Of a stretch of DNA of 64,000 bases, positions 42,001 through 45,000 are shown piece by piece; the first letter of the stretch is position 1, and each line of letters opens with the position of its first letter. The DNA lies in the NCBI RefSeq assembly GCF_056712565.1, contig NZ_CM160072.1. One strand, given 5' to 3'. The position numbers are program-made.

Positions 42001-45000
42001 GACAACCCGAACGGGTATTGCCTTTGCGGATAATACGCCGGTCTTTGCCCGCCAGGATTTTCGACAGGATATTAACCTAGCCCTGTTGCCAAAAACGCTT
42101 TTCACGACCGGTTATCGCTACACTAAATATTACGATGATGTCGAAGTCAATGCCTGGCAAGGCGGCGTATCACTCTATACTGGCCCGGTGATCACCAGTT
42201 ACCGCTATACCCATTATGACTCCAGCGATGCAGGTAGTAGTTATAGCAATATGATTTCCGTGCGTCTGAAGGACCCGCGCGGTGCTGGTTATACGCAACT
42301 ATGGCTAAGCCGCGGAACAGGTGCTTACACCTACGACTGGACGCCAGAAACACGCTACGGCAGCATGAAGAGCATCAGTTTGCAACGAATTCAACCGCTG
42401 ACTGAGCAACTTAATCTCGGGTTGACGGCAGGTAAAGTGTGGTTCAACACCCCAACCGATGATTATAACGGTCTGCAACTTGCAGCCCACCTGATCTGGA
42501 AATTCTAGGCAGCAGTCTATCAGTATATTTTATTCGGTAGTTTTCAGAGAAAAGCTATAACTCGGTTTGATAATAAACAATATAATTGGATTTGCCCCTA
42601 TATTTCCAGACACCTGTTATCACTTAACCCATTACTGGCTTGCTGCCGTAGATATTCCCGTGGCGAGCGATAACCCAGTGCACTATGCGGATGCCATTCG
42701 TTATAATGCTCGAACGCCTCTGCAAGGTTCTTTGCTGCCGTTAACCCGTCTGGTTTGGGCATGACACTGATGTAGTCACGCTTTATCGTTTTCACGAAGC
42801 TCTCTGCTATGCCGTTACTCTCCGGACTCCGCACCGCCGTGCTCTTCGGTTCAAGCCCCAACATCCGGGCAAACTGCCGTGTTTCATTAGCCCGGTAGCA
42901 TGAACCATTATCCGTCAGCCACTCTACTGGAGACGCCGGAAGCTCGTTGCCGAAGCGGCGTTCCACCGCTCCCAGCATGACGTCCTGTACTGTTTCACTG
43001 TTGAAGCCGCCCGTAGTGACCGCCCAGTGCAGTGCCTCACGGTCACAGCAGTCCAGCGCGAACGTGACTCGCAGTTTTTCTCCGTTATCACAGCGGAACT
43101 CGAACCCGTCAGAGCACCATCGCTGATTACTTTCTTTCACAGCCACTCTGCCTGTATGTGCCCGTTTCGATGGCGGTACAGCAGGTTTTCGCTCAAGCAA
43201 CAGCGCATTCTGGCGCATGATCCGGTAAACACGTTTGGCATTGATCGCAGGCATACCATCAAGTTCTGCCTGTCTGCGAAGCAGCGCCCATACCCGACGA
43301 TAACCATACGTGGGCAGCTCTCCGATAACATGGTGTATACGGAGAAGCACATCCGTATCATCAGTGTGACGACTGCGGCGGCCATCCATCCAGTCATCGG
43401 TTCGTCTGAGAATGACGTGCAACTGCGCACGCGACACCCGGAGACAACGGCTGACTAAGCTTACTCCCCATCCCCGGGCAATAAGGGCGCGTGCGCTATC
43501 CACTTTTTTGCCCGTCCATATTCAACGGCTTCTTTGAGGAGTTCATTTTCCATCGTTTTCTTGCCGAGCAGGCGCTGGAGTTCTTTAATCTGCTTCATGG
43601 CGGCAGCAAGTTCAGAGGCAGGAACAACCTGTTCTCCGGCGGCGACAGCAGTAAGACTTCCTTCCTGGTATTGCTTACGCCAGAGAAATAACTGGCTGGC
43701 TGCTACACCATGTTGCCGGGCAACGAGGGAGACCGTCATCCCTGGTTCAAAGCTCTGCTGAACAATTGCGATCTTTTCCTGTGTGGTACGCCGTCTGCGT
43801 TTCTCCGGTCCTAAGACATCAATCATCTGCTCTCCAATGACTAGTCTAAAAACTAGTATTAAGACTATCACTTAAATAAGTGATAGTCCTGATACAAGTT
43901 TTTAGAGTAGTCATTAGTGAACAGATAATTGTTAACTTAGAACCAGTAAAATGCAAACGACGCACCACGCTGGGAAAATCGCTGCTATTCAGCAGAGTTT
44001 TGTACCGAGAATTGTGGCCAGCCACTTATTGCTCTCGCGTAAGCAGGTATCCCCATCGTTTACCAGTCCAGCACATCTTGTGGTCAGACAGAAGAAGAGC
44101 AAACTGTTACTGGACTCACTGCATGCATGGTGGAGAAAAATGCCACGCTATCCAAAAATCCAGACTGGGTGAATGGTTCAGCTGTGTACTGAATCAGTGG
44201 GGCGCACTCTGTTATTACAGTGTTGACGGTCAGGCGGAGGCAGACATAATGCCGCGGAAAAAGCCCTTTGTGCCATCTGTCTCGGAAATAAAAACTCTTA
44301 TGACCTTTGTCAAATATTAAGCCCAAAAAGACCTTACGCAGCTCCGGGAGCTTCGTTATATCGCGGATTAAAGAACCTGAAACAGTCAGACTGTATCTTG
44401 GATTTTACAAACTCTTATTCGGGGATTTTAGCCCCATGACGATTTACGCAGTGAGCTGGCCTCTTTCTACGTGCAGGTATTAGCGCATTCTGGCTTCCCT
44501 GAATTCTTTTACGAGGATCACTCATTCCGTGTCTGACTGCTTCAGGGTTTAATTTTGCTTCTGCTGACTGAATGATGATTGGGCAGCAAGTGCAATATCC
44601 CACATAAATCCAGTCAACTCACGAGCCACCGCCGTAATGGCTACTTGTGATTTTTTCCCTTTTGCTGTCAGACTTCGGTAACGAGAACACAATCGTTGTT
44701 GAGCTTTCCATGCAATATCTTTGGAATATTGTGTTACAGAGTCCGGTCGGTAATATATAAGCCATGCCCCAACTTTTGCAGGTGTACGATAAGACCAGGC
44801 GGCTTCGTAAAGCAGACGTCTCAGTTCGCTGTTTCCAACTTTTGTTATTCCTCTGGGACGAATACTGTTTCCACTGGAATATTCACCTGGCACCAGTCCC
44901 AGAAAAGCCATGAGCTGTTTGGGATTGGAAAATCGCGAAAAATCACCCAGTTCAGCAACCAGAGTTATTGCAATTAGCTGACCAACACCTTTAAGAGCCT

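Follow-up and report, generated by a model that had tools for sequence, protein, structure and literature searches.

How does an IS2 with intact genes come to be joined, head to head and inside its own left end, to a diverged relative of itself? The question is raised by positions 42587–44170 of a 64,000-nucleotide stretch of contig NZ_CM160072.1 (NCBI RefSeq assembly GCF_056712565.1; the whole stretch is called the window here), in which a minus-strand copy of the insertion sequence (IS) IS2 meets the stump of an older IS2-group element within a shared 20-bp palindrome. An earlier note, made from the sequence alone, had suggested recombination or hairpin-mediated rearrangement rather than simple insertion, and our analysis supports this view: palindrome deletion in a precursor reconstructed from the empty site of E. 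coli Nissle 1917 gives the window sequence exactly. The junction probably arose in two steps: IS2 inserted in the ordinary way, and palindrome-stimulated deletion then took place between 20-bp direct repeats. It is composed of the following features:

42587..42627, minus strand: IS2 right inverted repeat (IRR, 41 bp), intact; exact single match
42598..43503, minus strand: insD (IS2 orfB, 301 aa), intact; from the open reading frame (ORF) list, Pfam and NCBIfam
43503–43509, minus strand: A6G frameshift window, AAAAAAG, between orfA and orfB
43461..43826, minus strand: insC (IS2 orfA, 121 aa, repressor), intact; from NCBIfam and Pfam HTH_Tnp_1
43866..43885, no strand assigned: shared 20-bp palindrome TATCACTTAAATAAGTGATA, the junction; one occurrence within the window
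43886..44071, plus strand: stump of the older IS2-group element, degenerate; counterpart of IS2 nt 53 to about 250

IS2 is a member of the IS2 group of the IS3 family and a two-step copy-out/paste-in element (PMC3299598, PMC3219604), with a left inverted repeat (IRL) of 42 bp and an IRR of 41 bp (PMC3299598). The minus-strand match covers 42587–43885, or 1299 of 1331 bp, and its IRR (TGGATTTGCCCC...) begins exactly at 42587, as in full IS2 copies. The copy is intact from its right terminus through insC, as the earlier note had stated: InsC scores 276 bits against the NCBIfam cut-off of 229 for the IS2 repressor TnpA and InsD 713 bits against 597 for the IS2 transposase TnpB, the Pfam domains HTH_Tnp_1, rve, rve_3 and HTH_21 are detected, and the insD DNA shares 100% identity with copies that are annotated as intact, with a programmed frameshift. 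The identification as IS2 holds, but not as the K-12 reference copy, from which 29 of 1299 positions (2.2%) differ; the sequence is that of a common mobile isoform, with 100% identical copies at many chromosomal and plasmid loci flanked by 5-bp duplications. The match ends in the palindrome, and the left terminus ...TTGGTTGTCTGGAGATTCAGGGGGCCAGTCTA (terminal TAGACTGGCCCCCTGAATCTCCAGACAACCAA) was checked for and is not found at the junction. The outer 32 bp of the IRL are gone and only nt 33–42 are left, within the shared palindrome, so that the copy is truncated and not a complete IS2. It has no 5-bp target duplication, the second end being lost, whereas complete IS2 copies elsewhere keep theirs (GTAAC, AGGCA, GTGGC, CAAGT, TTATG and CTTTG). 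In addition, this IS2 (42587–43885) is a mosaic when compared with segments L002 and L005: its outer parts match a 4%-diverged variant of the GPEC1258 type, and its central ~520 bp (positions 681–1199 from the right end) are exactly K-12-type IS2. The pattern indicates recombination or conversion between IS2 lineages.

The palindrome corresponds to IS2 nt 33–52; it takes in the innermost part of the IRL together with the OrfA operator and runs into the beginning of the extended –10 of the promoter P_IRL. According to published footprinting, IS2 residues 39–48 include the OrfA repressor site, and TGAT at 48–51 starts the extended –10 of the weak P_IRL (PMC3299598). Full isoform copies at two unrelated loci (duplications GTAAC and AGGCA) read TATCACTTAAATAAGTGATA on the strand antisense to insC, and the sense strand of the stump also reads TATCACTTAAATAAGTGATA. 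Because the palindrome is nearly self-complementary and the TT centre of the isoform, flipped relative to the K-12 reference, mirrors the AA of the stump, the two elements form a perfect 20-bp direct repeat when they face each other. The crossover could lie anywhere within these 20 bp; its placement by the AA centre was considered and dropped, as full isoform copies have the same AA centre on that strand. The breakpoint lies 32–52 nt inside both elements, with only the IRR side sitting at a terminus, and is therefore not a transposase cleavage site. Transposase-catalysed adjacent deletion or targeted insertion is expected to break exactly at an IS terminus, and no such breakpoint is found at the palindrome. 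As a k-mer, the junction reads AAGACTATCACTTAAATAAGTGATAGTCCTGATAC and the intact IS2 IRL end reads GGGGGCCAGTCTA. Simple scans for promoters and terminators at the junction returned no more than is expected by chance.

Rightwards of the palindrome, the plus strand is ~76–78% identical to the 5' region of IS2 in the opposite orientation (BLAST E = 2e-39), and a repeat finder returns inverted arms at 43774–43874 and 43877–43977, 101 nt each, 78% complementary and 2 nt apart. The diverged IS2-group element proposed in the earlier note is thus present, but it is shorter than the interval given there: the stump measures about 205–240 nt and ends near 44071 at an IS66 relic (44068–44302) that lies partly inside that interval. 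Likewise, the proposed InsC-like start of this element stands as nucleotide homology to the orfA region and fails as a reading frame. The orfA frame is broken by indels and the stump frames have no Pfam match at E ≤ 0.01, so the stump is without transposase coding capacity. In its Nissle copy (segment L003, 5834–5890), 53–55 of 57 positions are identical to IS2 nt 1–57; identity is 76% over nt 58–150 and ~77% over ~190 nt beyond the first ~57, and farther in the alignment is broken by ~24- and 5-bp deletions and fades at about nt 250. The near-identical first 57 nt could reflect end conversion by IS2 or strong left-end conservation within the IS2 group. The stump in the window has no left inverted repeat, and the Nissle copy, 99.8% identical, keeps a full IRL. 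Together with the full isoform copies, it bears out the claim that both elements lack their outer left repeats and are joined at the same palindrome.

The site before the arrival of IS2 is represented by Nissle 1917, in which the same locus reads yaiO, a 145-bp spacer, and then the stump with a complete IS2-like IRL (TAGACAGGCCCCCTGAATCTCCAGACAACCAATATCACTTAAATAAGTGATAGTCC...). Window positions 41900–42587 are 100% identical to Nissle L003 5001–5688, and positions 43866–44302 are 99.8% identical to L003 5866–6301; between them, 177 bp (the spacer and the first 32 nt of the stump) are replaced by IS2 nt 1331 to 53. Flank comparison places the IRR against DNA downstream of yaiO at the equivalent of L003 5687/5688, and many phylogroup B2-like genomes match the yaiO flank at 100% identity, up to exactly 42587. 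In our collection of 5426 complete genomes, the yaiO–stump arrangement of Nissle occurs in 832, and the yaiO–IS2 junction of the window is absent from all. The stump is thus old and resident and IS2 the later arrival, since Nissle holds the stump without IS2.

For the reconstruction, the full isoform was placed in silico after Nissle L003 5687 with a 5-bp duplication (ATAAT), and the DNA between the two palindromes, 235 bp apart, was deleted. The product equals window 41900–44296 with 0 mismatches, and differences start only at the boundary of ISEc45, an IS110-family element. As single-stranded DNA, the precursor folds at –116 kcal/mol versus –27 for shuffles (z = –20.6), and the present junction folds at –48 kcal/mol. 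Direct repeats are found at both deletion end points of the precursor, with one copy left in the window and in two other genomes, and the folded precursor has a hairpin-forming inverted repeat that encloses the deleted segment.

These data are consistent with a two-step model. In the first step, a complete mobile IS2 isoform would have transposed into AT-rich DNA just downstream of yaiO, landing ~145 bp upstream of the left end of the resident stump, with the two left ends facing each other and the elements in opposite orientation. The left ends of IS2 and stump would then constitute the arms of a strong inverted repeat, and the palindrome within each arm would provide a perfect 20-bp direct repeat with copies 235 bp apart. 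In the second step, deletion between the repeats would have retained one copy and removed IS2 nt 1–32, the second target duplication, the 145-bp spacer and stump nt 1–32. The reconstruction reproduces this step exactly, and its molecular route would likely be replication slippage across a template hairpin, or hairpin or cruciform cleavage by SbcCD with single-strand annealing; the sequence itself does not appear to discriminate between the two routes. The final state is a one-ended IS2 with intact insC and insD, operator and P_IRL, and with a much weaker remaining quasi-palindrome. The primary work on palindrome-stimulated deletion between short direct repeats is reportedly that of Bzymek and Lovett in 2001. 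In E. coli, such deletion occurs by slipped mispairing or by SbcCD-dependent single-strand annealing, the latter typically with longer repeats, of 6–23 bp (PMC1851657).

The search of other genomes that the earlier note had proposed recovered the same junction. Only 30 of the 5426 genomes carry an IS2 within reach of the stump, and the identical palindrome junction occurs in FDAARGOS_1249 and MINF_2E, two independently sequenced complete genomes, where it lies in a paralogous copy of the surrounding island next to cobU (the cob locus). STEC346 represents the empty cob locus, relative to which the IS2 right ends lie 60 bp (FDAARGOS_1249) and 72 bp (MINF_2E) upstream of the stump. An insert-then-delete rebuild from STEC346 reproduces FDAARGOS_1249 with 0 mismatches as far as ISEc45; for MINF_2E it leaves 7 single-nucleotide polymorphisms. 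The stump allele beside each junction is native to its own background and the left flanks share no homology, which argues for three origins and not for one spread event; by this comparison, the palindrome junction arose independently at least three times. An exact scan with the 35-nt junction found no match in JGI metagenomes or in one genome per species.

Natural controls are provided by four further sites at which a complete IS2 with 5-bp duplications lies head-to-head near the stump:

Near the stump, duplication GTGGC: CFSAN061772, E10 and 1919D3
Near the stump, duplication CTTTG: DSM 103246
Near the stump, duplication TTATG: SMS-3-5
Inside the stump at nt 62–66, duplication CAAGT/CAACT: GPEC1258 and ST130

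Every upstream complete IS2 (three sites) adjoins a stump allele in which the right arm of the palindrome is lost (TATCACTTAAAT-TGATAC). Both left ends are kept, too, when two identical IS2 copies face each other at a distance of 130 to about 600 bp; the palindromes of such pairs necessarily meet as ATTT versus AAAT, an 18/20 match, and no IS2–IS2 palindrome fusion is present in the collection. Sites with a 20/20 repeat are thus three deleted and none intact, and sites with a shorter repeat are none deleted and six intact (Fisher about 0.012). As a separate matter, derivation of the window from the GPEC1258/ST130 type was considered and rejected, on the reasoning that palindrome deletion or inversion there does not give the window sequence.

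Several points speak against insertion followed by deletion. The tally comprises nine sites only, and in its imperfect-repeat controls the length of the spacer and the similarity of the arms are different as well. An undeleted precursor beside a stump with an intact palindrome is absent from the 5426 genomes, so the two steps are not seen separately, and a concerted event or one of the alternatives below may have taken their place. The second target duplication is gone, and step 1 is therefore unprovable from the window sequence. Furthermore, all seven IS2 arrivals near the stump share one orientation, for which the model gives no account and which random orientation would produce with a chance of about 1 in 64. 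A preference of IS2 pairs in general for the head-to-head arrangement was considered as the cause of this bias and is not supported by pair counts: within about 600 bp, pairs are head-to-head in 4 genomes, tail-to-tail in 36 and tandem in 23, clonal relatives being counted separately.

The missing precursor would fit a process tied to IS activity, and such a process can be formulated as a transposition-coupled strand switch. A complete head-to-head IS2 would begin copy-out, with figure-of-eight replication primed at the IRR flank, and the nascent strand would switch at the IS2 palindrome to that of the stump, short-circuiting transposition and deleting the intervening DNA. Active transposase would be required, possibly with an IEE-type PrimPol; the IS2 in the window encodes intact OrfA and OrfAB, and excisions of IS3- and IS30-family elements have been proposed to involve such a switch to microhomology during copy-out (bioRxiv 10.1101/2023.06.07.543989). 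However, the product is the same as that of host-only slippage, so the sequence gives no preference for the strand switch, and the reported IEE-type events remove the IS at microhomologies of 2–6 bp, in contrast to the 20-bp repeat and the retained IS body of the present junction. We consider this explanation unlikely.

The shared orientation of the arrivals could be accommodated by a role for the IS2 proteins themselves: OrfA or OrfAB bound to the resident operator might recruit an incoming IS2 in fixed orientation, pair the operators and promote quasi-site-specific joining. The left-end operator palindrome of IS2-group elements would then be a protein-directed hotspot, and the fusion a reaction of IS2 proteins in place of a passive deletion by the host. 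The idea is doubtful, and we would give it little weight.

The constant orientation and the lack of a precursor would also be explained by one-step integration of an IS2 minicircle into the stump via the 20-bp palindrome in inverted register, after which the abutted IRL–IRR junction on the left would attack nearby DNA and delete the stump left end together with a variable flank. This scheme accounts for a junction that is fixed at the palindrome while the IRR flank varies (60, 72 and 145 bp upstream), and in IS2 transposition it is the abutted ends that form the reactive species (PMC3299598). On the other hand, recombination would have to rely on just 20 bp, while the other register offers a near-identical 57-bp stretch. 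That stretch would be the preferred substrate and would lead to the opposite orientation, which is not seen. Two rare events in succession would be needed, and no abutted-junction intermediate is found at the locus. We regard minicircle integration as very improbable.

A similarly slight chance is left to a single ancient event that was spread by recombination, with the IRR flanks varied later by adjacent deletions or exchange of IS2 copies. Comparison of the window with FDAARGOS_1249 shows 0/1299 differences in the IS2 part, and ISEc45 sits at one and the same point in the two. Copies of the isoform with 100% identity, however, are spread over dozens of unrelated loci, so that descent cannot be deduced from identity, and ISEc45 occupies that site in a third, unrelated allele as well. 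Against common origin also stand the stump and IS66 DNA, which in the window is of the Nissle type and in FDAARGOS_1249 of the STEC346 type, exactly as in the respective background, and the yaiO and cob left flanks, which have no homology to carry a conversion tract. A related proposal, inversion or exchange between distant IS2 copies, was considered for the cob genes to the left of the FDAARGOS_1249 junction and was ruled out by the native 145-bp distance between yaiO and stump in Nissle and by the existence of two paralogous island copies.

An assembly artefact, in which the true genome holds the full precursor and the assembler collapsed the 20-bp or the inverted repeat, is scarcely credible: repeats and hairpins are classic trouble spots and the window is known from its assembly alone, but the same junction is present in the two other complete genomes, which were sequenced independently; arms with a similarity of only 78% do not fit a foldback or chimeric-read palindrome; and both flanks are natively adjacent in 832 genomes, so that the join is local and clean.

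Insertion followed by palindrome-stimulated deletion is thus our preferred reading, and the resulting junction is a recurrent but ordinary example of a known rearrangement class, not a new system. As in the E. coli deletions studied previously (PMC1851657), a hairpin-forming inverted repeat contains the direct repeats or has them at its base, and the repeat length of 20 bp falls within the 6–23 bp range. Unlike those systems, the present one is a natural chromosomal case, its arms are the left ends of two related ISs, and the direct repeat is itself a small palindrome, the repressor operator; a dependence on SbcCD, RecA or replication direction would be predicted by analogy. Nearly precise excision of Tn10, which was reportedly described by Foster et al. 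in 1981, appears to be a comparable process by analogy, being a transposase-independent deletion between short repeats symmetric in inverted IS arms that leaves a small palindromic remnant. Tn10 loses the whole interior between two copies of one IS; in the present case the loss is confined to the two facing ends and a short spacer, and the body of one IS remains. The term nearly precise excision is also used in the work on strand switching (bioRxiv 10.1101/2023.06.07.543989).

IS2 has also arrived inside the left ends of IS2-group elements as a complete element. Copies with duplications CAAGT, CAACT and ATATG lie 10–14 bp inside the operator palindrome at the following positions:

L005: 3823–3892 and 5214–5225
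L006: 3880–3892 and 5214–5225
L015: 1800–1870
L016: 1800–1880 and 3190–3200

Two of these hosts are stump alleles and two are a different IS2-group element, which has IS2 at about nt 62–69 and whose own OrfA scores 202 bits, below the IS2 repressor cut-off of 229. In all four, the IS2 right end faces the left end of the host element. The positions hint at end-directed targeting that may resemble that of IS911, and we offer this as a lead only. Targeted insertion of the IS911 type next to resident IS ends is attributed to Loot 2002 and Rousseau 2007 in PMC3299598. Like IS911, IS2 is found repeatedly beside or just inside IS2-group left ends in the same orientation; these insertions are complete with target duplications and distinct from the palindrome junction, and a role of OrfA or OrfAB in them would rest on analogy. 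In several chromosomes, moreover, an IS2-group right end directly abuts an IS2-group left end (H222–H230; for example NZ_CP176406.1 1195709–1195895). These matches are single pieces, about 85% identical to a synthetic IRR+IRL query, with a tandem arrangement that resembles a minicircle-type junction.

The junction is flanked by the following neighbours:

41687..42508, plus strand: yaiO-family outer membrane protein gene, the native left neighbour; annotated YaiO in identical Nissle 1917 DNA
44068..44302, plus strand: IS66-family transposase C-terminal relic, frameshifted; from the NCBI annotation pipeline (PGAP) on identical DNA of FDAARGOS_1249 and Nissle 1917
44297..45741, minus strand: ISEc45 (IS110 family), inserted into the IS66 relic; boundaries from sequence; not part of the junction event

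Before IS2, the gene order on the plus strand is yaiP/yaiX/yaiO, ending at 42508 according to the sequence and ORF list. The lost 145-bp spacer contains, just downstream of yaiO (L003 5689–5765), a near-perfect hairpin with a stem of ~31 bp (aatttcgggcaataacttattcgtatagagcacc...ggtgctctatacgaataagttattgcccgaa), a candidate terminator or small palindromic element. The island comprises the stump, the IS66 relic, a PfkB/RikA kinase, a glutamine amidotransferase, a DMT transporter and a phosphotriesterase-like gene. It is found at two loci, beside yaiO or cobU (L014 of S88, 3001–3226; L003 of Nissle, 5834–6301), and some B2 strains appear to hold both copies with different alleles. The 377-aa transposase of ISEc45, an element not present in Nissle, matches Pfam DEDD_Tnp_IS110/Transposase_20 and NCBIfam IS110, and its NCBIfam label is RNA-guided transposase. 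The same point of the IS66 relic holds ISEc45 in three backgrounds, namely the yaiO locus and, at the cob locus, both the Nissle-type and the K-12-type allele (window 44297–45741; L001 about 6598–8042; L010 5851–6984), which suggests site-specific insertion. In addition, the IS2-like stump and the IS66 relic are separated in the K-12-type allele by a degenerate IS911-like relic of 737 bp, which lies on the minus strand (L002 6631–7366). The IS911-like relic is missing from the window (44068–44071) and from Nissle. Given the CCAG(A) microhomology at the boundaries, the alleles with and without it appear to be separated by a second small deletion or an old insertion.

What the junction means for IS2 can be read from what is kept and what is lost. 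Like IS2 in general, the copy has the IRR, insC, the A6G window, insD, the operator and P_IRL with its extended –10; unlike a complete IS2 it is one-ended, the outer 32 of 42 bp of the IRL being missing and with them the left-end cleavage domain and most of the transposase-binding domain. Because these domains are missing, the copy is predicted to be immobile by the normal two-ended pathway, yet it should supply OrfA and OrfAB in trans. For annotation, such IS copies should be flagged as truncated despite their intact-looking genes. The repeated arrivals beside the stump, and the complete IS2 copies 10–14 bp inside the operator of IS2-group left ends, are leads to the target choice of IS2. The junction leaves the current understanding of E. 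coli genome dynamics unchanged, and it provides a clean natural example of an IS operator palindrome acting as a direct repeat when related elements face each other, in which the host would reproducibly trim the resulting hairpin to a one-ended IS that is predicted still to make transposase and would be unable to move.

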